64,000 nt of DNA from Candidatus Levyibacteriota bacterium (GTDB lineage: Bacteria > Patescibacteriota > Microgenomatia > Levybacterales > UBA12049). A model generated the notes under the pieces. The model had not been told where the DNA came from and searched no databases. It worked only from the letters and a program-made list of their open reading frames with translations. Position numbers and translations under genes: made by a program. This document shows, piece after piece, positions 17,184-40,379 of this stretch; within the stretch, counting starts at the first letter, position 1; each line of letters begins with the position of its first letter. The stretch is taken from the NCBI GenBank assembly GCA_016186645.1, contig JACPLF010000005.1:33257-97256 (forward strand). The letters run 5' to 3'.

Positions 17184-17579
17184 ATGATATATAAGGGCGT
17201 TATTATTGAAGAAAGTCTAAGCAATACTCCTATCTTAAAGGACGTTAGTATTTTAGAAACTAAAGTTGAAACGGTCACTCCTGAACATCAAACTCCTTGG
17301 TTGAAGCAATGGACTCTTCATACAGTGGAAGTACCAGAAGATAAAGCAGAGGATATAGCTGAAAAATTAAGTAAGTCCTTGGATTATTCCCACAATAGTA
17401 GCTGGTATGCTGATTTTAAAAATGATGAGTACCACTTTATTATTTTTAAGGATAAAATTTTTAAGGTCGGACTTGATGACGCTGAAGGGTTTAAAGAAGA
17501 AAAACAATATGGTATTTCTTTAGGAATTCCAGAGTACCAAGTTGATTTTGCACCAGAAGATAAAGTTTGGGAGCGATAA
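17184..17579 (+). CDS. Hypothetical protein
   Basis: 131 aa ORF. Overlaps the start of cdd by 13 nt. Confidence 0.3.
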   Translation: MIYKGVIIEESLSNTPILKDVSILETKVETVTPEHQTPWLKQWTLHTVEVPEDKAEDIAEKLSKSLDYSHNSSWYADFKNDEYHFIIFKDKIFKVGLDDAEGFKEEKQYGISLGIPEYQVDFAPEDKVWER

Positions 17580-18016
17580 ATATGGATATGACAGACCAGC
17601 AACAGAAAAACTTAATAACAGCAGCGCTAGAAGGAATGAAAAATGCTTTTACTGGTACTAATAAACCAGAAGACATGAGATTTGGCGCAGCAGTTTTAAC
17701 AAAGAAAGGCAACATTTATTCTTCTGGACAATATTATTCTGACACTTATTCTTTGACGCTACACGCGGAACAATCGGCCTTAGCTCACGCAGCTGCTCAC
17801 GGAGAGTACGACATTGTCGCTATTGCCATTACTGGAAATGAACCGGTGGGTCCGAATGATTCAATTTATCCATGCCATATGTGTAAACAGCTTCTTTGGG
17901 AAAATCACTTGCGTTCAAAAGAAAACACAGAGCTCATTTTATTGAATGAGAAGGGCAAAATATTAGAAAAATTGAAACTGCTCGATATTATAAATTATCC
18001 TTGGCCTAAAGGATGA
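17567..18016 (+). CDS. cdd: Cytidine deaminase
   Basis: Zinc-binding HAEQSA and PCHMCKQ motifs of the homotetrameric CDA family. Confidence 0.7.
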   Translation: MGAINMDMTDQQQKNLITAALEGMKNAFTGTNKPEDMRFGAAVLTKKGNIYSSGQYYSDTYSLTLHAEQSALAHAAAHGEYDIVAIAITGNEPVGPNDSIYPCHMCKQLLWENHLRSKENTELILLNEKGKILEKLKLLDIINYPWPKG

Positions 18017-18810
18017 TGATTATGTATGAAGATAATCCATTTATGTTAAAAAGCAAAGGTCATTCCTTAGAATCAAGTGAAAATCAAGTATTGAAGCAAT
18101 TACAACTTATGTTTAGGGAAAGAAATGATATCGCAGCCGTCATTATTGAACCAGTTATGGTGAATGCGGGCGGTTTTATTTTTAGCAAAAGGTTCCTGAA
18201 GGAATTAAGAAATATATGCTCGAAATACAATGTATCATTAATTTTTGATGAAATTCAAACAGCGTTTGGTTGGCTTGGAACTTTTTTTGCTTCTGATTTC
18301 TTTGGTGTCACTCCGGATATTGTTACTCTCGGTAAAGGTTTAAGTAGTGGTTTTCCGCTCGCAGCGATCATCATGAAAGAGGAGTACGACGTAATTAACT
18401 ATGGTGAAGATGAGTACACATACGGTGGTCATCCCATTTCCTGCGCAGTTGCACTAGAAACTATCAGGTTTCTGGAAAATTCAAACATTTTTTCTGAAGT
18501 TATGGAAAGAAGTAATTTACTTAAAAAACTATTGCTAGAAATGGCAAAAACAAATAAAGAATATATTAAAGAGGTAAGAATATGCGGTCTTATCGCCTCT
18601 TTAGAATTTTACCAAAATAAACACAAAGATTTTGCAAATTATGTATATAAAACCGCATTATATAATGGGCTAGTGTTAAGAAAGTCATCTAACGGTTTTA
18701 GGCCGAGCCTCGTATTAAAACCTCCTCTCATTGTTTCAATAACAGAGACTGAGAGAGCCATGGATTTATTATCAGAAAGTATTCATGAGGCAGCTGAAGC
18801 ATTGCGGTAA
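18013..18810 (+). pseudogene. Class III (acetylornithine/GABA-type) aminotransferase, N-terminally truncated by about 150 aa
   Basis: Retains DEIQTAFGWLG and TLGKGLSSG (PLP lysine) but lacks the N-terminal substrate-binding domain. Preceded by cdd in another frame. Confidence 0.5.
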
Positions 18811-18815
18811 AAACA

Positions 18816-19472
18816 ATGATCAAACTCATCATTTTCGATTACGATGGTCTTCTTGTTGAAAGCGAGAAATTGGCATTTCGTGCAGAGGAAAAGATTTTAC
18901 GGAGATATGGAAAACCACTAACGAAAGATTTGTTCGATAAATATTTAGGTTATTCTGTAATTGATACGCTGAAAGGATATATTGGATATCATAATTTATC
19001 TATTTCTATTGATGACTTTTATGCACAGAGAGAGGCTACGATAAATACTTCTTTGGAAACAAACCTTATATTAAAGCGCGGAGCAAAGATACTACTAGAG
19101 TATCTGCATAAAAAAAGGATAACAATGGTTATTGGCTCTTCAGGGGAGCGTTCATATATTGAAACCGGGTTGAAGATTTTAGGTGTTGAAAAATATTTCA
19201 AAAATATTACTTGCGTCAGCGAAGTCAAAAGAGGAAAACCAAACCCTGATTTATTCCTTGAAGCTTTAAGGAAAAATAATACAAAGGCAAAAGAAGCAAT
19301 TGTTCTTGAAGATGCTATCTCAGGAATTAAAGCAGCAAAAGCTGCCAATATATTTTGCATCACCGTTCCACCGCTTGATATGAATATACAAGGCCATAGA
19401 ATCGCTGATATTGTTGTTGATAATTTAGAAAAAGTAAAAGATATATTTGAAAATTTTCAAACATTCTCGTAA
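18816..19472 (+). CDS. HAD-IA family hydrolase (beta-phosphoglucomutase-like)
   Basis: DxD motif IIFDYDGLLVESE. SGIKAAKAA motif IV. Confidence 0.75.
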   Translation: MIKLIIFDYDGLLVESEKLAFRAEEKILRRYGKPLTKDLFDKYLGYSVIDTLKGYIGYHNLSISIDDFYAQREATINTSLETNLILKRGAKILLEYLHKKRITMVIGSSGERSYIETGLKILGVEKYFKNITCVSEVKRGKPNPDLFLEALRKNNTKAKEAIVLEDAISGIKAAKAANIFCITVPPLDMNIQGHRIADIVVDNLEKVKDIFENFQTFS

Positions 19473-20280
19473 CTTTTGCCTGATGTGTATGCTATTGAGA
19501 GAAATTGAAGAGTACAGCAAACAACAAGAGAGTTTATTACCGAGACATAACCCTGAAGTATTAATATTTGATACACCAGAAACAGTTGACACTTTTGCAG
19601 CATTGAGGGTTATTGAGCAAGTTCGGACAAAACCAGACTCCATTTTAACCCTTCCTACTGGTAATACGCCTATTGCTATGCATCAACATATCGTAGAAAG
19701 TCACAAGCAAGGTAGAGTAGATTTTAGTAGAGTAACAATATTTAATCTGGATGAATATTGTCCAATTCAACAGACCCATCCAAGCAGTTATACAGCATTT
19801 ATGAGAAGATGCCTTATTGATCATGTGCCGGTATTAGCTCGGCATATTCCAAACGGTGAAGCACCCGGTCTTGAAGCGGAAACAGAACGATACAGATATC
19901 TTTTAGAACAACATCAGCCAATCGACCTTGCGATATTGGGAATTGGTCCATCAACAACATGCCACATAGGTTTTAACGAAAGGGGTTCTGCAATTGACTC
20001 TGTAGTAAGATACGTATCCTTGCATCCAGAGACTAAGCAGGAAAATGCAAAGGCTTTTGCCAATCCTGAAGAAATTCCAAAGGGGGCTCTAACGCGGGAA
20101 TTGCAGATATATTGAGAGCAGAAAACATTCTTGTTATTGCTAAGGGTATGTCAAAAGCATGGGGCATAAATAGAACATTAAGAGGAATAATCTCTTCTGG
20201 AGCACCATCTTCATTTTTACGTCTTCATCCAAATGTAACATTTGCTCTCGATCAAGAAGCAGCAATGTATATAAAATAAT
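19447..20280 (+). pseudogene. Glucosamine-6-P deaminase / 6-phosphogluconolactonase family gene with a +1 frameshift near 20100
   Basis: N-terminal LTLPTGNTP...DEYCPI ends at 20115. The C-terminal GIADILRAENILVIAKG...LRLHPNVTFALDQEA continues in the +1 frame to 20280. Confidence 0.5.
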
Positions 20281-31093: not shown

Positions 31094-33019
31094 ATGCTGG
31101 CACCTTTGTCTTGGTTAAAAGAATATGTAGACATAAAATTAACTCCCAAAGAATTGGGAGAAAAACTTACCGAAGTTGGACTTGGCGTTGAAAAAATTAC
31201 CAAAACTTCAGATGACACTATTTTTGAATTGGAAATAACTCCAAACCGCCCTGACTTACTTTCAATTATTGGAATTACTCGCGAAATTGCAGCAATTGAA
31301 AACCAGCCTGCCGGCAAGGCAGGTAAAAATATTAAATATCCCAAATTCAAAACCCAACTCAAACCAACTGCAAAAGTACTTCCACTAACTATCAAAACTG
31401 ATTCAAAAATTAACCCAAGATTTACAGGAATTATTATTTCGGGAGTAAAAGTAGGGGAATCCCCAAAATGGCTAAAAGACCGCTTAGAAAAAATGGGGCA
31501 GAGACCCATCAATAATATTGTTGATATTACCAATTATGTAATGCTGGAATTGGGCAATCCTATTCATGCTTTTGATTACGACAAAATTGCTGAACATATA
31601 ATGATAGTTTCTCAAACAAAAGGCGGGGAAAAATTTGAAAGCGTAGACGGAGTAACTTATCACCTTCCCAAAGATACGGTCGTAATATCTGACAAAGAAA
31701 AAATTATAGATCTTTGCGGGATAAAAGGGGGAAGAAATACAGGAACTTATGAGGATACAAAAACTATTTTTATCCGTGTTCCTGTTGAAATCTCAAATTT
31801 AATAAGAAGAACATCTCTATCTCTTGGATTGAGAAGTGAGGCATCAAGTATTTTTGAGAGAGGAGTTAATGCCGGCGGTACAATTGATGCTTTGAAAAGA
31901 ACAGTTGATTTGGTTTTGGAATTGGCAGGCGGAGAAGTCGCAAGCGAACTTTATGATATAAAAAAAGAATATTTTAAACCTTGGAAATTAGAACTAAGAG
32001 TAAAAAGATTAAACCAAATTTTAGGCATTGAAATTCCAACAAAAAAAATTCTGGAGATTTTAGGATCACTCAATCTTTCACCCATACACCTTCCAGGTGA
32101 ACGGAAACGACACCTGGAAGGTGAAACGGTTATTGAATGTGCCATTCCAACCTACAGAAATGATTTAAAAATCGAAGAAGATTTGATTGAAGAAATTGCC
32201 CGAATTTATGGTTATAATAATTTTCCCAAAACAATGCCGGGAGGTACAATCCCAACAAAACAAATTCCATATTTCAAAGATTACAGACTTGATGAGAAAG
32301 TAAAAAATATTTTAAAAGCAAGCGGTTTTTCAGAAATTTATACCTACAGCTTGATAAGCGAAAAAGATTTAATAGAGGCGGGCATTAATTCTCAAAATGT
32401 TCTCCGCGTTGATAATCCGGTAAGTCGTGACTTCGAATATCTGCGTCCAACACTTAAAACTAATTTATTGAAAGCTCTGTCTCAAAATAAGTCTAACTTT
32501 GAAAAAATTAATCTTTTTGAATTAGGAAAAGTTTACAACGGAAAAAATTTAGATGAGGCAGAAGAAAATTATTTTCTCTCTGGGATTTCAAACTCTAAAT
32601 CATATTTTGAAGTTAAAGGAATGCTTGAAAAAATCTTTGAAGACTTAGGAATCAAAGAAGATCCAACAAGATATATTGAGATCTTGAACGAAAGAATTTT
32701 CTTTGAATTAAATTATTCAGAGCTTATTAAGAAAATAAATCCTGATAAAAAATTTATTCCTCTACCAAAATATCCGCCTATCGTAGAAGATTTATCAATA
32801 ATTTCAGACGCAAAAACTAGTGAGATTATTGATGAAATAAAAAAACAAAGTTCTATTATTGTTAATGTTTCACTTTTGGATCAGTTTGAAGATTCAAGAA
32901 CTTTTCATATTGTCTACCAAGATGAAAATAAAAACTTAACAGGAGAAGAAGTTGCTAAAATCCGCGAAAAACTCCTCAAGAGTCTTAAAGAAAAGTTCAC
33001 CGCCAGACTAAGGGAATAG
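31094..33019 (+). CDS. pheT: Phenylalanyl-tRNA synthetase beta subunit (short form)
   Basis: B3/B4 and B5 domain region. C-terminal FDV-like domain. Synteny with pheS. Confidence 0.85.
   Translation: MLAPLSWLKEYVDIKLTPKELGEKLTEVGLGVEKITKTSDDTIFELEITPNRPDLLSIIGITREIAAIENQPAGKAGKNIKYPKFKTQLKPTAKVLPLTIKTDSKINPRFTGIIISGVKVGESPKWLKDRLEKMGQRPINNIVDITNYVMLELGNPIHAFDYDKIAEHIMIVSQTKGGEKFESVDGVTYHLPKDTVVISDKEKIIDLCGIKGGRNTGTYEDTKTIFIRVPVEISNLIRRTSLSLGLRSEASSIFERGVNAGGTIDALKRTVDLVLELAGGEVASELYDIKKEYFKPWKLELRVKRLNQILGIEIPTKKILEILGSLNLSPIHLPGERKRHLEGETVIECAIPTYRNDLKIEEDLIEEIARIYGYNNFPKTMPGGTIPTKQIPYFKDYRLDEKVKNILKASGFSEIYTYSLISEKDLIEAGINSQNVLRVDNPVSRDFEYLRPTLKTNLLKALSQNKSNFEKINLFELGKVYNGKNLDEAEENYFLSGISNSKSYFEVKGMLEKIFEDLGIKEDPTRYIEILNERIFFELNYSELIKKINPDKKFIPLPKYPPIVEDLSIISDAKTSEIIDEIKKQSSIIVNVSLLDQFEDSRTFHIVYQDENKNLTGEEVAKIREKLLKSLKEKFTARLRE
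31307..31323. repeat. Palindrome CCTGCC-GGCAA-GGCAGG in frame within pheT (read as PAGKAG)
   Basis: Same family. Confidence 0.7.
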
Positions 33020-33099: not shown

Positions 33100-33606
33100 C
33101 TAGCTTGATTTACCTTGCCATTTATCTAAGAAACCTATGGTCTGCTCTATGGTTATTTCACGTCTAGCCCTATTTTCTCTTAAATTCAAGATACTGCGAC
33201 TTATTCCTACAATTCTTCTTGTATTTTCAACGTTTACGGGAAATTCAGGATTAACATTTAAAGCGGGTAATAATGATAATGGTACAGCATAAAATTTCAG
33301 CAACCTGTTATCTTTCGCTCCCGCACGCCTAACAATCAACAGTAATTTATCATCTGCGTCCCATCCCCTAAATATAGGCCATACTGTAACAACTTCCAAC
33401 TGTCCTTCATCGGAATCAACTGTTCCAAAAGACAAAACAGCCCTTTTTTCTTTATTCTCTCCTAAAGTATTTATTAGATATTCAGCATGTGTTCTACCAT
33501 AAAAATTCCTCACGTCTTCAAATAAACCCATCAAATTCTCCCTGGCTTCCTCAATGATTTTTTCCTTTTCATCTGGAGAAAGACTTTGCCCTATGTATTC
33601 GTTCAT
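33100..33606 (-). CDS. Hypothetical protein
   Basis: 168 aa ORF adjacent to the RAYT element. Confidence 0.3.
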   Translation of the reverse strand: MNEYIGQSLSPDEKEKIIEEARENLMGLFEDVRNFYGRTHAEYLINTLGENKEKRAVLSFGTVDSDEGQLEVVTVWPIFRGWDADDKLLLIVRRAGAKDNRLLKFYAVPLSLLPALNVNPEFPVNVENTRRIVGISRSILNLRENRARREITIEQTIGFLDKWQGKSS

Positions 33607-33651
33607 TTAAGCGATTTTAACACACGGAAAAATCAATTGCAAAAATTTATA

Positions 33652-34439
33652 CCCCCCGATTACACCCCGCCCTCCGATTACACCCCGAGGGTGTTTGCCG
33701 TTGACACCTGAGGAAATTTGTGATTTACTGACCATATGCCTTCAAGAATAATTCCTTTTGTAAACGGTGAATATTACCACATTTTTAATAGAGGCGTAGC
33801 CAAAATGCAGATATTTAATAATTTCTATGATTACAATCGTTTCGTAAAAACGATGATTTATTATTCAATTGAAGGACCCAAGCCAAGATTTTCAGTTTTC
33901 ACCCCAACCATATCAATATTGAACATAAATAAGAAAATCGTCGATATTATTTGTTATTGCCTCATGCCTAATCATTTCCATTTCCTCTTGCGTCAGGTCA
34001 AAAAAGGCGGCATTACAGAATTCGTAAGCAGACTCAGTAATAGTTATACAAAATATATCAACATTAAAAATAAAAGAGTTGGTCCTTTATTGCAAGGGAA
34101 TTTTAAGGCTGTTCACGTAGAGACAAACGAACAGCTCCTGCATCTTTCACGATATATTCATCTAAACCCTCTTGTAAGCTATGTCGTAAAAGATTTAGAT
34201 ATCTATAAATGGTCATCCTATCTTGAATATATCGATCTAATTAATAATGGGATCTGCGATAAAAAAATAATACTGGATCAATTTAAGTCTCCTAAAGAAT
34301 ATAGGCAATTCGTTTTAGATCAAGAGAGTTATGGAAAAAAACTAGAAGCGATAAAGCATCAGCTTTTGGATTTGGAGGCGTAATTCCTATGTGCAATCGT
34401 AAGACACCCCGAGGGTGTAAACGGAAGGTGTAAACGGAA
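33652..34439 (+). mobile_element. REP-associated tyrosine transposase (RAYT/IS200-like) unit with flanking hairpin and tandem terminal repeats
   Basis: Identical 15-mer hairpin ACACCCCGAGGGTGT at 33680-33694 and 34404-34418. Tandem CCGATTACACCCC x2 on the left. Tandem GGTGTAAACGGAA x2 on the right, an imperfect inverse of the left repeats. Confidence 0.55.
33736..34383 (+). CDS. REP-associated tyrosine transposase (Y1 HUH transposase, IS200-like)
   Basis: HUH motif MPNHFHFLL. RYIHLNPL...YKWSSY resembles the RayT YIHxNPV...YPWSS catalytic Tyr region. Confidence 0.7.
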   Translation: MPSRIIPFVNGEYYHIFNRGVAKMQIFNNFYDYNRFVKTMIYYSIEGPKPRFSVFTPTISILNINKKIVDIICYCLMPNHFHFLLRQVKKGGITEFVSRLSNSYTKYINIKNKRVGPLLQGNFKAVHVETNEQLLHLSRYIHLNPLVSYVVKDLDIYKWSSYLEYIDLINNGICDKKIILDQFKSPKEYRQFVLDQESYGKKLEAIKHQLLDLEA

Positions 34440-34442
34440 AAT

Positions 34443-36830
34443 TTAAGGTGTAGGCGTGATTGTTAACGTAGGCATTGGGGTAGGAATAGGTGTTTGAGTT
34501 GGAGTCGGAGTGTCGGTTACAATTCTAGTTGACAGCTCAGTTGGCGGATGGTACGAAGGATCGTCTTTATAAGTTTCGTTTACCCACTTATCAATTCCCT
34601 CTTGCCAGCGATTTTTTCCATCCCCTGATGTCGGATCGTCTTCGCGAAACACAATAAATTTACGGGTATCATATTCATTTTTATCAAGCTCGGATGCACT
34701 TGCAATTTTATTGCCATCTGCCTTTGAAACTTTGATTGTTTTGTAAATTGGGCTTGGCCCCTGCGGTTCGGTTCCTTTTATAAAATACTCAGAACGAGTT
34801 GATTGTCCGTCTACTGGCAGCCCTCCGCCCAAAGAATCAATTGTAACGGCAATAACATTGTCAGGTTTTATAAATTCTTCAGATGGTTTATTTTTCAAAG
34901 CCTCCAAAATGATTCTTCTCCAAATCGGCGTTGCTCCTGTCACTCCGGACGCAACATTACCCATAGGTGAATTGTCGTTATTTCCAACCCATGTCGCAAC
35001 CAAAATACTCGGCGTCCAGCCGATTGTCCAGTTATCTCTTTTATCATCTGTTGTTCCTGTTTTTACAGCAATCGCTCGGCTGCCCATATTCAAATAGCTA
35101 TTTACTCCGAAAGTAATAAGTCTCGCATTATTGTCCAAGAGTATATGGGAAATTATGAATGCCACTTCCGGACTTAACACTCTTTTCTTATCTGTTTCTT
35201 TTTGCTCAAACAAAACCTTACCTTTTGGATCTGTAACTTTGAGAATTGCAATTGGATCAGATCTATATCCCTCATTTGCGAATGCTGTATATGCAGCAGC
35301 CAGCTCAAGAGGCTTTACGTCTCCTCCTCCCAATGTCAGAGACAGCCCAAAACGATTTACATTATCCTGAGTCGGCGCAAACGTGCTAATTCCCATATTG
35401 TATGCTGTTGACAGCATGTTTTTAACTCCGACCAAAGCCAAAAGTTTTACAGCAGGAATATTAATTGATGAACCTAAAGCGAATCTTAGCTGGAGAGGTC
35501 CGTGGAATTTACCGTCGTAATTTTTCGGCTCATAATCTTTTTCTTCTCCGGGATTTGGAAAAACTGTTGGCGTATCCATTATTAAAGATGCCGCTGTATA
35601 TCCTCTTTCCAAAGCCGTAGCATATGCAACTGGTTTTATGGAAGAACCGGGCTGGCGAAGTGCCTGGGTTATTACATTAAATTGCCCGCCCTTTGAGGGA
35701 GTATCTTTTTCATCCTCGCCCTCAGCAGATTCATCGAAAAAATCTCTGCTTCCAACCATTGCCAGGATTTCTCCGTTTTTTGAATCCAAGACAATACTTG
35801 CCCCATTTCCAACATTTAGACTCTCTGCATTCTCTACTTCTTCTTTCACAATTTCTTCCGCTTTTTCTTGTAATTTATAATCCAAAGTCGTTGTAACCTG
35901 CAGTCCGCCTTGCTCAACAACATTTTCTCCAAATTGCTTAATCAACAAATCTTTAACATAAAAAGAGAAATGGGGAGCTTTTATCGCGTGCGTTTCTTTG
36001 AGAAACTCGACATTGGGTAATTTTTTTATCGTATCTAATTCCTGCTTTTTAGTAATGTAATTGTCTTCCTGCATTCTTCGCAATACCTCTTTGCCTCTAT
36101 CTATATATGCTTTTGGATTCTGCCCGTAAGGAGAAAAAAAGGAAGGTCTTTGGGGAAGTCCTGCTAAAATTACTGACTCTGTCAGATCCAGATCTTTGGC
36201 TTTTTTTCCAAAATATCTTTCTGATGCTGCTTCAATTCCAACTGTTGTTCCGCCATAGGGAGTGGCATTAAAGTAGAGCTCCAAAACTTGGTCCTTTGTG
36301 TATTTTCTGTCAACCTGAATTGCCAGAATAAATTCTTTGATTTTACGAGTTACTGTCTGTTCGGATGTTAATAGGGTATTTTTAACTAATTGCTGTGTAA
36401 TGGTAGAACCTCCTCCTGATATCCTTCCTCGTAAAATTGCGTTTCTAAACGCTCTGAGATAACCTGTTATTGAAAATCCCTGGTTCTGATAAAAATCTTT
36501 ATCTTCTATGGCAAGTGTTGCCTGCTGTAAAATTTTGGGAATTTGATCTAAAGTTATGTACGTACGATTTTCATCCCGATATATATCGTAAAGAAGAAGT
36601 TCCTGCCTATCGAAAATTTTTGTGGACTGAGGAAAATTGCTGGCAGAGAGTTTTTCAGGAGTAGGTAGCTCCCGGCTAAACCACACAAACATTACAAACA
36701 TGATTACAAAAAGACCAATTAGTCCAAAAAAGGCAAGTTTTGCAATTTTGCTATAAAGAAAAATGCTTGAGGAATGTCGTTGCAATCTGCTGCGTCTGCC
36801 AAACAAAGCCATAAAAACATTATATACCAC
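34443..36830 (-). CDS. Class A penicillin-binding protein (PBP1A: transglycosylase plus transpeptidase) with Pro/Thr-rich C-terminal tail
   Basis: GT51 motifs EDKDFY and GGSTITQQ. Transpeptidase SxxK and KTGT. C-terminal TPTPTQTPIPTPMPT tail. Confidence 0.85.
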   Translation of the reverse strand: MVYNVFMALFGRRSRLQRHSSSIFLYSKIAKLAFFGLIGLFVIMFVMFVWFSRELPTPEKLSASNFPQSTKIFDRQELLLYDIYRDENRTYITLDQIPKILQQATLAIEDKDFYQNQGFSITGYLRAFRNAILRGRISGGGSTITQQLVKNTLLTSEQTVTRKIKEFILAIQVDRKYTKDQVLELYFNATPYGGTTVGIEAASERYFGKKAKDLDLTESVILAGLPQRPSFFSPYGQNPKAYIDRGKEVLRRMQEDNYITKKQELDTIKKLPNVEFLKETHAIKAPHFSFYVKDLLIKQFGENVVEQGGLQVTTTLDYKLQEKAEEIVKEEVENAESLNVGNGASIVLDSKNGEILAMVGSRDFFDESAEGEDEKDTPSKGGQFNVITQALRQPGSSIKPVAYATALERGYTAASLIMDTPTVFPNPGEEKDYEPKNYDGKFHGPLQLRFALGSSINIPAVKLLALVGVKNMLSTAYNMGISTFAPTQDNVNRFGLSLTLGGGDVKPLELAAAYTAFANEGYRSDPIAILKVTDPKGKVLFEQKETDKKRVLSPEVAFIISHILLDNNARLITFGVNSYLNMGSRAIAVKTGTTDDKRDNWTIGWTPSILVATWVGNNDNSPMGNVASGVTGATPIWRRIILEALKNKPSEEFIKPDNVIAVTIDSLGGGLPVDGQSTRSEYFIKGTEPQGPSPIYKTIKVSKADGNKIASASELDKNEYDTRKFIVFREDDPTSGDGKNRWQEGIDKWVNETYKDDPSYHPPTELSTRIVTDTPTPTQTPIPTPMPTLTITPTP

Positions 36831-40359: not shown

Positions 40360-40379
40360 AATCCACCCTAGGGTGGATT
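40360..40379. terminator. Perfect 20-bp palindrome AATCCACCCTAGGGTGGATT after recG, followed by a T-run; REP-like or terminator
   Basis: Perfect dyad. Core CACCCnnGGGTG resembles the RAYT-flanking hairpin. Confidence 0.35.

Follow-up and report, generated by a model that had tools for sequence, protein, structure and literature searches.

A probable REPtron/TIRtron-type unit in Microgenomates: a class-2 Y1 HUH endonuclease gene between two copies of its predicted recognition hairpin

Y1 HUH endonucleases have been divided by Quentin et al. (2018; PMC6006769) into class 1, with the IS200 transposases, which has a Y---Q motif, and class 2, which is TnpA-REP-like and defined by Y---NP (REP, repetitive extragenic palindrome). 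In that paper, TnpA-Y1 subclass 2.1 has the signature NHVH or NH[YF]H, W[EQ] or FQ, YIELNP or Y[IV]HLNP and an SS proximal tail, and corresponds to Group 1 of the REP-associated tyrosine transposases (RAYTs) of Bertels et al. (2017; PMC5581495) and to most of the TIRYTs of Di Nocera et al. (2013; PMC3733652), whose TIRtrons have terminal inverted repeats at similar distances, many of them with GGGGWSAS. REPtrons are the other close comparison, and group 3 of these includes REPtrons Sm and Mb, with stems of 5 bp in REPtron Mb (Corneloup et al., 2021; PMC8266576). Here we describe a unit of about 0.8 kb in a 64,000-nucleotide stretch of a Candidatus Levyibacteriota genome (GCA_016186645.1, contig JACPLF010000005.1, positions 33,257 to 97,256), referred to as the window, in which a Y1 HUH endonuclease gene lies between two identical hairpins next to the gene for the penicillin-binding protein PBP1A. 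The hosts are Patescibacteria (Microgenomates), whereas no host from the candidate phyla radiation (CPR) is named in the excerpts of the three papers PMC3733652, PMC6006769 and PMC5581495, and searches of the accessible literature on RAYT or IS200 together with Patescibacteria or CPR found no RAYT-like system described in these bacteria. The unit is probably of the REPtron/TIRtron type, a largely domesticated class-2 Y1 gene between two copies of its predicted recognition hairpin, and it carries signs of slow ongoing DNA processing.

The Y1 protein and its flanking hairpins

The protein encoded by the unit (215 residues; Table 1) has the NHFHFLL and YIHLNPL...YKWSSY blocks that the first-pass annotation had read from it, and it matched the Pfam family Y1_Tnp (PF01797) above the gathering threshold (30.3 bits for a cutoff of 23, E=5.1e-7). 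All of the 34 family members analysed matched Y1_Tnp as well, with no other Pfam family in any of them at E≤0.01 except one spurious TEN_TERT match, and the distal C-terminal helix-turn-helix (HTH; Bac_DnaA_C, HTH_23, HTH_28) expected of subclass 2.1 was found in 0/34. The C-terminal 65 residues, predicted to be helical, could be assigned to no family. An AlphaFold (AF2) model built from 34 relatives (pLDDT 84.9, pTM 0.82) had as its best Foldseek match 4er8_A, the E. coli TnpA-REP bound to a REP hairpin (E=1.7e-6, TM 0.74 on the target), followed by the ISDra2 and IS608 TnpA proteins (probability 1.00). A sequence search of the PDB with the protein returned nothing relevant, and one with the family profile gave weak matches to ISDra2 TnpA only (E ~0.2). 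Residues N79-H80-F81-H82 and Y140-I-H-L-N-P are invariant in the family alignment, and NHxH and Y-x3-N[PS] are intact in 136/136 full-length orthologues. The second motif is YIHLNP in the window protein and in 130 of the 136 relatives, the remainder having YIHINP, YVHLNP, YLHLNP or YIHLNS; in the same 136 proteins we found NHFH in 127, LQ (76) or FQ (38) before G, and [WF]S[SA], mostly WSS, in 120.

The protein is hence a class-2 Y1 HUH endonuclease of the RAYT/TIRYT branch of the IS200 superfamily. Its motifs, compared with Table 1 of PMC6006769 rather than with the authors' hidden Markov models, fit TnpA-Y1 subclass 2.1, the TIRYTs and Bertels Group 1. The first-pass reading of the gene as a RAYT rather than a classical IS200 TnpA thus stands in part: it is nearer to RAYT/TnpA-REP, given Y---NP, the structural match to 4ER8 and the fact that NCBIfam NF047646 (REP_Tyr_transpos; E=2e-11, residues 66-160 only) was its sole match in that collection besides a negligible one (E=0.077). 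A canonical RAYT/REP identity was rejected, since that match reached 44 bits against an equivalog cutoff of 80, the motif signature points to subclass 2.1, and the GT[AG]G tetranucleotide of characterised REPs was found at, or within 2 nt of, the stem foot in only 1/197 flanking hairpins on the top strand and 0/197 on the bottom strand.

The exact protein is annotated as 'transposase' in a Candidatus Levybacteria metagenome-assembled genome (MAG) and is also encoded on a 1,972-bp Logan contig of run SRR12113384. It has matches in more than 7,900 database clusters, of which the best show 65-89% identity and almost all are 211-220 residues long. A search of 1.84 billion representatives gave 17,964 clusters at E≤1e-3, of which 429 reached E≤1e-30, the nearest ones mostly having ~210-230 residues. 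Comparison loci were taken from metagenomes (80) and from species-representative genomes (80), and ~140 orthologous Microgenomates loci were analysed, with 135 unique loci for the hairpins, 136 full-length proteins and 141 distinct proteins. Where hosts are named, they belong to Levybacteria, Curtissbacteria, Daviesbacteria and other Microgenomates/Patescibacteria. Several records labelled 'uncultured Gammaproteobacteria' (binchicken and SRP MAGs; L090, L099, L100 and others) also carry the Microgenomates Y1 family, and two of these (L099 and L100) have the Levybacteria gene order recG-tyrS-PBP1A-Y1-pheT at 62-78% protein identity; the names of these records are evidently wrong or placeholders.

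The 15-mer ACACCCCGAGGGTGT, reported at first pass on both sides of the ORF (open reading frame), indeed occurs exactly twice in the 64 kb, once on each side of the gene (Table 1). Allowing up to three mismatches, its chance expectation was 0.33, and the observed count was reached in 0/100 shuffles. The hairpin was first described as a 5-bp stem with a 5-nt loop; it can equally be drawn with 6 bp and a 3-nt loop (ACACCC/GGGTGT), and its distances from the ATG and from the stop codon, first given as 42 and 21 nt, are each one nucleotide shorter. Both copies have calculated folding energies, as DNA, of -4.8 to -6.3 kcal/mol, no different from shuffled sequences (z ~-0.1 to -0.5), and their significance is therefore drawn from exact repetition and from conservation in relatives, not from folding energy. 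The tandem duplication outside the left hairpin, with a period of 18 nt, and the duplicated, imperfect reverse complement of this half-site outside the right hairpin are present as first noted, so that the ends of the unit form an imperfect inverted repeat. To these we add two half-sites on the gene side, GCCGTTGACACC inside the left hairpin and a degenerate GTGCAATCG inside the right one.

That the hairpins belong to the unit is borne out by the relatives, in which hairpins of the form CACC[CT]-NNN-[AG]GGTG, or variants with CAACC, CTACC or CACAC arms, flank the gene at nearly every orthologous locus. The upstream hairpin lies at about -55 to -60 from the ATG (about -30 in a more distant clade) and the second one 1-55 nt after the stop codon. 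By a strict definition (perfect 5-bp stem, 3-nt loop), the upstream hairpin was present in 103/135 unique loci and the downstream one in 94/135. When 105 upstream regions were aligned with MAFFT, the inner five pairs proved 96-100% paired, with compensatory changes of the closing pair from C-G to U-A in 18 sequences and of the fifth pair from C-G to A-U or U-A in six; the covariation score was reached by 0/500 shuffles, and shifting the partner columns abolished pairing. The two ends moreover agree with each other: the 5-bp arm was the same at both ends in 88/90 loci, for a permutation mean of 53 and maximum of 64, and in all 22 loci with an arm other than the majority type. The GGGGWS core was found in 145/197 ends and the full GGGGWSAS in 8/197.

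The agreement between gene and hairpin extends to single genomes. Thirteen MAGs hold two or three paralogs with 51-66% mutual identity, and in ~11 of the 13, comprising all those with hairpins detected for at least two paralogs, the paralogs have distinguishable hairpins, each type standing at both of its own ends; MAG CAYQAW01, for instance, has the types TTACACCC-CAA, TCCACCC-TTG and CCACCT-CCG. By analogy with REPtrons, this is the pattern expected of cognate enzyme-substrate pairs.

Ends, promoter-like box and inheritance of the unit

In the alignment of upstream regions, a TTGACA box follows the hairpin at a distance of ~7 nt. Its positions T46, T47, A49, C50 and A51 reach a conservation of at least 90%, as do the first and last T of a T-N4-T hexamer that comes after a spacer of ~17 nt. 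This hexamer is TTTACT in the window and TATACT, TATGCT or TATATT elsewhere, with 6-9 nt to the ATG, and the spacing from TTGACA to ATG (33701-33738 in the window) is conserved in ~100 orthologues. The promoter claim is drawn from this conservation and not from the promoter scan, which missed TTGACA-17-TTTACT. The short distance between the -10-like hexamer and the ATG, together with the lack of any evident Shine-Dalgarno sequence before the ATG, suggests that the transcript is likely leaderless. In the distant clade the -35 and -10 boxes stand on either side of the hairpin, which overlaps TTGACA, as in GCTTGACACCTCGAAGGTGTAATCGTAAACT. From the position of the hairpin relative to TTGACA we infer that a protein bound at its own hairpin would be placed to regulate its own transcription.

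This arrangement also bears on an explanation in which the hairpins serve a fully domesticated gene purely in transcription, as operator or insulator on its upstream side and as terminator or stabiliser downstream, with no cleavage and with their similarity maintained by gene conversion or by regulator binding. The fixed distance of the left hairpin from TTGACA and ATG, the way the two promoter-like boxes enclose it in the distant clade, the location of the downstream hairpin within the 3' untranslated region, and stem wobbles that all have T on the 5' side and G on the 3' side in the sense strand, as an RNA or top-strand role would allow, would fit such signals. We consider this improbable: HUH and Tyr residues invariant in all 136 proteins are unexpected for a pure DNA-binding regulator, cognate hairpins lie far from the gene, around other genes and in frame in pheT, and recent duplications occur at the outer hairpin borders (both described below). 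A scan for intrinsic terminators found none, and no T-run terminator, and Rfam gave no RNA family over 33400-34700, on which grounds the terminator reading was dropped.

The sequences around the hairpins differ between lineages in how the two ends relate to each other. In the Levybacteria clade to which the window belongs, the right end repeats the left one in inverted form, with CCGATT-hairpin-...TTGACACC on the left and AGGTGTAATCGTAAG-hairpin-AATCGG on the right. Many Daviesbacteria have as right end a direct copy of the left one, including TTGACACCTGCGG, with up to 18/18 identical bases past the hairpin. Loop orientation is uncoupled from flank orientation, the window having inverted flanks and direct loops. 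A transposon with defined ends would not tolerate such variation in orientation; a gene amid copies of a REP-like unit would.

Duplications of half-sites are almost confined to the outer side of the hairpins. Outward duplications were found at 13/102 left ends (0.05 expected) and 13/91 right ends (0.15 expected), and inner ones at 0/102 left and 3/91 right ends, with breakpoints in the loop or within ~2 nt of it. Three loci with shared neighbours and 85-87% nucleotide identity (L023, L029 and L031) are set apart by indels that fall precisely on the outer border of each hairpin; in L023 the left end is present twice in full (+31 nt), and a stretch of 15 nt, AAGGGTGTACATCTA, is duplicated at the right end. 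The three form a useful natural series for breakpoint mapping. Replication slippage at palindromes could be proposed, in place of an enzyme, as the source of both the flanking and the dispersed hairpins, these being kept as harmless and the Y1 protein being functionally unrelated to them; template switching can duplicate sequence beside hairpins with no enzyme at all, and these hairpins are short and weak. Such an origin appears very improbable to us, as hairpin type covaries with the paralog inside single genomes, the arm is equal at both ends in nearly all loci, the position relative to the gene is fixed across 52-83% protein identity, and the duplications are biased outward at both ends.

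A pheS-pheT-PBP1A(-)-tyrS-recG block is common to Levybacteria and Curtissbacteria, and the Y1 gene occurs in it in four arrangements: between pheT and PBP1A in the orientation of the window (12 loci representing 10 places: window, L002, L004, L011/L084, L016, L019/L093, L087, L096, L105 and L106), inverted at the same site (L008, L010 and L099), between PBP1A and tyrS (L030, L097 and L098), and directly after recG (L007 and L100). A single fixed locus in all relatives, which the first-pass annotation had named as one mark of a domesticated single-copy gene, is therefore not what we found. The four arrangements within one block imply that the gene was relocated or inverted a few times in the course of a long evolution, and in each case only locally. 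At the site after recG, the window has the palindrome to which a relation with the unit had been ascribed from the start, and relatives indeed hold the whole unit or a solo end copy there: its distance from the recG stop codon is that of the unit's left hairpin in L007, two loci (L003 and L005) have a solo hairpin plus TTGACACCTGCGG, and two more (L082 and L093) have degenerate remnants. With a folding energy of -7.5 kcal/mol and no TTGACACC part, the window palindrome, perfect over 20 nt, looks like what is left of an end unit, or a solo copy of one, at a position that is occupied in relatives. The empty PBP1A/tyrS site of the window and the empty pheT/PBP1A sites of Curtissbacteria (L097 and L098) hold no hairpin remnant.

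Among the loci of this block, identity to the window proteins was 63-83% for Y1, 32-67% for PheT, 39-76% for TyrS and 46-78% for RecG, so that the Y1 protein is conserved as much as, or more than, its housekeeping neighbours. Only five of the 141 distinct proteins are truncated, and the GC content of the unit is host-like. This high identity, the rarity of truncation and the host-like composition indicate vertical inheritance and strong purifying selection, a profile known from RAYTs and unlike that of an insertion sequence.

The claim that the locus is a mobile unit is accordingly only weakly true: the gene has changed place, but within one syntenic block, and near-identical copies are lacking, the paralogs having no more than the 51-66% identity given above. 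An active, autonomous, minimal insertion sequence of the IS200 type, whose TnpA would move the whole 0.8-kb unit as single-stranded DNA via both hairpins, has in its favour an IS200-like size and organisation (a lone Y1 gene between subterminal hairpins, with tnpB absent as it is from IS200 itself), the four positions and orientations in the block, and a second family member within 10 kb in seven of the fetched loci. We hold it to be quite unlikely all the same, somewhat more so than pure transcription signals, since the protein has Y---NP in place of the Y---Q of subclass 1.1, same-genome paralogs have distinguishable hairpins, the 64-kb window holds one copy, the position is kept across Levybacteria whose PheT has fallen to 32-36% identity, composition is that of the host, and ends that are direct in some lineages and inverted in others would not be tolerated by a mechanism with defined ends.

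Several observations weigh against our preferred account of a domesticated gene between recognition hairpins that are still processed. The orientation of the ends is inconsistent (by a simple score, direct in 27 loci, inverted in nine and undecided in 54), as is that of the loops (direct in 52 loci, inverted in 26), and a single reaction with two fixed ends would hardly account for this variability. Thermodynamically the hairpins are weak, and they have no GT[AG]G guide of the kind found in characterised REPs. Within the window, exact copies of the cognate hairpin are confined to the gene, the three other family hairpins being of a slightly different subtype. The outward-only bias could partly reflect selection, on the left side, against insertions between hairpin and promoter, and the predicted nick site is read from the duplication breakpoints alone. 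Changes of position within the block could be ordinary rearrangements. Finally, the -10 sequence of the window, TTTACT, fails the rule of the promoter scan, which calls for A at position 2.

Under the REPtron/TIRtron-type account, the enzyme would bind its own hairpin on single-stranded DNA, by analogy with TnpA-REP in 4ER8, nick in or beside the loop via Y140 and be able to rejoin the strand. If the loop were nicked, the 3' end extended briefly with displacement, and the enzyme-linked 5' end then rejoined, outward duplications would result; occasional rounds of these reactions might also give rise to hairpin copies at new places or move the gene locally. Protein bound at the left hairpin, beside the -35 box, may autoregulate the probably leaderless transcript. 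The gene itself would be mostly vertically inherited, with strong purifying selection for a function at the host level or in its own maintenance.

Dispersed hairpins, bracketed genes and neighbours in the window

The first-pass annotation had proposed a search for further hairpins as a check on the existence of a REP family. In the 64-kb window this gave no further exact cognate copy, and related subtypes in the form of a doublet in pheT and the palindrome after recG; counting the two hairpins at the gene and the doublet, the window has four CACCY-NNN-RGGTG sites for 0.05 expected. In relatives the hairpins are dispersed: 89 extra hairpins of the family's eight arm types were found in 1.50 Mb of flanks outside the units, compared with ~8 in shuffles, a roughly tenfold excess. 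They are commonest in MAGs with several paralogs, and 55 kb of MAG JAUSHL01 contain the cognate hairpin of one paralog seven times and that of another five times.

The pheT doublet (CACCTTCCAGGTG-AACGGAAACGA-CACCTGGAAGGTG) forms a 13-bp hairpin with a folding energy of -17.5 kcal/mol (z -6.4), and each of its members is followed by AACGG, as at the right end of the Y1 gene. It encodes ~10 residues (HLPGERKRHLEGE) that are missing from ~14 of 15 aligned PheT orthologues, which marks it, from this alignment, as an insertion in this lineage; the PheT of L106 has a larger, unrelated insertion at the same point. In-frame intragenic REPs and inverted doublets are known in REP families too.

Hairpin units of this family also enclose other genes. 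In one locus (L157, 17385-18170) two 48-nt direct repeats bracket genes for a Phd/YefM-like antitoxin and a RelE-like toxin (17528-18086), each repeat consisting of a hairpin, CACCTTAAAGGTG, and a tandemly duplicated AGGTGTCAAGCTAAA; this hairpin is of the type cognate to L139, another Y1 paralog of the same MAG. In another (L136, 5440-6300 and 19400-20200) an ORF for a P-loop kinase-like protein of 169 residues and one for a membrane-anchored protein of 160 residues are each bracketed by hairpin units of the same type, and the unit at 19400-19480 has three tandem left half-sites (TTTAATATCACACCCCAAGGG). The hairpin pairs ~720 nt apart in these two loci hold no second Y1 gene; they enclose other genes. 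Upstream of the Y1 gene of L157 (5865-9679) one hairpin type occurs in almost every intergenic gap, among genes for a methyltransferase, a DDE (rve-type) transposase and a 260-residue ORF. A reading of this series as a cassette array was weakened, given that the hairpins fill most intergenic gaps and that one lies beside the DDE transposase; a local REP cluster beside the gene has been reported for Marinomonas REPtrons, and the L157 cluster of REP-like units is alike.

A more far-reaching version can be entertained, tentatively and as doubtful on present evidence, in which these features together make up a previously undescribed Microgenomates REPtron-like system: one whose subclass-2.1-like Y1 nuclease nicks the loop of a minimal hairpin of 5-6 bp without a GTAG guide, uses the hairpin as promoter/operator, has as many as three or more orthogonal enzyme-hairpin pairs side by side in genomes of ~1 Mb, and still copies its hairpins, even in frame into essential genes such as pheT, with small accessory cassettes, such as the toxin-antitoxin pair of L157 (17402-18170), that lie between direct repeats and might be mobilisable in trans somewhat like integron attC.

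Around the unit (Table 1), the second right-hand repeat ends 3 nt short of the complement of the PBP1A stop codon, and the unit thus abuts the PBP1A coding sequence; the overlap supposed at first pass is not borne out. The Thr/Pro-rich C-terminal tail of PBP1A (...TDTPTPTQTPIPTPMPTLTITPTP; 34446-34530 in the window) is encoded, on the opposite strand, by DNA that is rich in GGTGT/AGGNGT and directly adjoins the right-hand GGTGTAAACGGAA repeats. As first noted, no tnpB is present, and there is no second ORF inside the unit. The 168-residue ORF between pheT and the unit gave no Pfam or NCBIfam match and was found, among the fetched loci, only in the contig of its own genome (L001), the corresponding site of relatives having other content or none; it was set aside as a part of the unit on both grounds.

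Table 1. Features of the Y1 unit and its surroundings in the 64,000-nucleotide window.
Feature	Position	Strand	Remarks
pheT (phenylalanyl-tRNA synthetase beta subunit)	31094-33019		
Doublet of related hairpins, in frame in pheT	32087-32123	+	CACCT-TCC-AGGTG ... CACCT-GGA-AGGTG
ORF of 168 residues, between pheT and the Y1 unit	33100-33606	-	
Outer left half-site, copy 1 (CCCCCCGATTACACCCCG)	33652-33669	+	Outer flank, left arm and two loop bases; no partner arm
Outer left half-site, copy 2 (CCCTCCGATTACACCCCG), continuing into the left hairpin	33670-33687	+	94% identical to copy 1
Left hairpin ACACCC-CGA-GGGTGT	33680-33694	+	Exact repeat; 41-nt gap to ATG
Inner left half-site and promoter-like box GCCGTTGACACCTGAGG	33697-33713	+	TTGACA at 33701-33706
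Inner left half-site GCCGTTGACACC, gene side of left hairpin	33697-33708	+	Contains perfect TTGACA
-10-like hexamer TTTACT	33724-33729	+	17 nt after TTGACA, 6 nt before ATG
Class-2 Y1 HUH endonuclease gene, 215 residues	33736-34383	+	HUH, H80/H82; putative catalytic Tyr, Y140 in YIHLNP
Degenerate inner right half-site GTGCAATCG	34391-34399	+	Relatives have AGGTGTAATCGTAAG at the corresponding place
Right hairpin ACACCC-CGA-GGGTGT	34404-34418	+	Exact repeat; 20-nt gap from stop codon
Outer right half-site GGTGTAAACGGAA, two tandem copies	34414-34426, 34427-34439	+	Right arm and outer flank
PBP1A gene, convergent to the Y1 gene	34443-36830	-	Complement of stop codon at 34443-34445
Possible degenerate third right half-site GGTGTAGG, within the last PBP1A codons	34447-34454	+	Uncertain; may be chance
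Solo palindrome AATCCACCC-TA-GGGTGGATT (AATCCACCCTAGGGTGGATT)	40360-40379	.	26 nt after recG stop codon

Relation to described systems and meaning

The family resembles the TIRtrons, TIRYTs and subclass 2.1 in its protein motifs (NH[YF]H, [FL]Q replacing WQ, Y[IV]HLNP and the SS tail) and in its low copy number, diverged paralogs, terminal repeats at a roughly fixed distance and moderately abundant solo copies. The GGGGWS core of the TIRYT motif is common at its ends, and the full GGGGWSAS is rare, as counted above. It differs from the published description of subclass 2.1 in protein length (a median there of 238 residues with a distal HTH, and 215 residues here with no HTH detected) and in its perfect hairpins of 5-12 bp with a 3-nt loop, no REP-like structures being reported near subclass 2.1 genes (PMC6006769). 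TIRtron ends are inverted, whereas those of the present family are direct in many lineages and inverted in the window.

With the REPtrons, and the E. coli YafM protein (PDB 4ER8) in particular, the family shares its best structural match, the class-2 Y---NP motif, the single gene between cognate palindromes, one REP type per enzyme when several coexist, and palindromes that are clustered near the gene and, in relatives of the window, also dispersed elsewhere, as REPs are in intergenic regions. Stems of 5 bp are likewise common to REPtron Mb and the hairpins of this family. The family departs from REPtrons in the near absence of the GT[AG]G foot, in its NCBIfam score, in hairpin density, at about one per 17 kb in the sampled flanks and not hundreds per genome, and in a left hairpin that stands at a fixed distance from the start codon and is fused to the promoter-like box. 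The TnpA proteins of the IS200/IS605 group (IS608, ISDra2, IS200) have the same Y1 HUH fold and Pfam family, with subterminal hairpins around a small gene and, presumably by analogy, similar single-strand nick-and-join chemistry; the family described here differs from them in Y---NP, in a C-terminal extension of ~65 residues, in the lack of identical multiple copies and of tnpB, and in the variable orientation of its ends. The unit is thus a variant of known REPtron/TIRtron systems rather than an ordinary jumping gene, and the package is kept in more than 100 related ultra-small bacteria.

For annotation, RAYT/TIRYT-like Y1 HUH endonuclease is a better label for such proteins than plain 'transposase'. 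Subclass 2.1, or Group 1, is the largest and least understood branch of RAYT-like Y1 proteins, reported to be without REP-like partners and with no known substrate. The present family offers a comparative handle on that substrate, with a minimal hairpin at a fixed place, covariation of enzyme and hairpin, several orthogonal pairs, and breakpoints that point to the loop. Streamlined CPR genomes maintain populations of REP-like repeats together with a very conserved 'transposase', which bears on the role that domesticated enzymes of this kind may have in their hosts.

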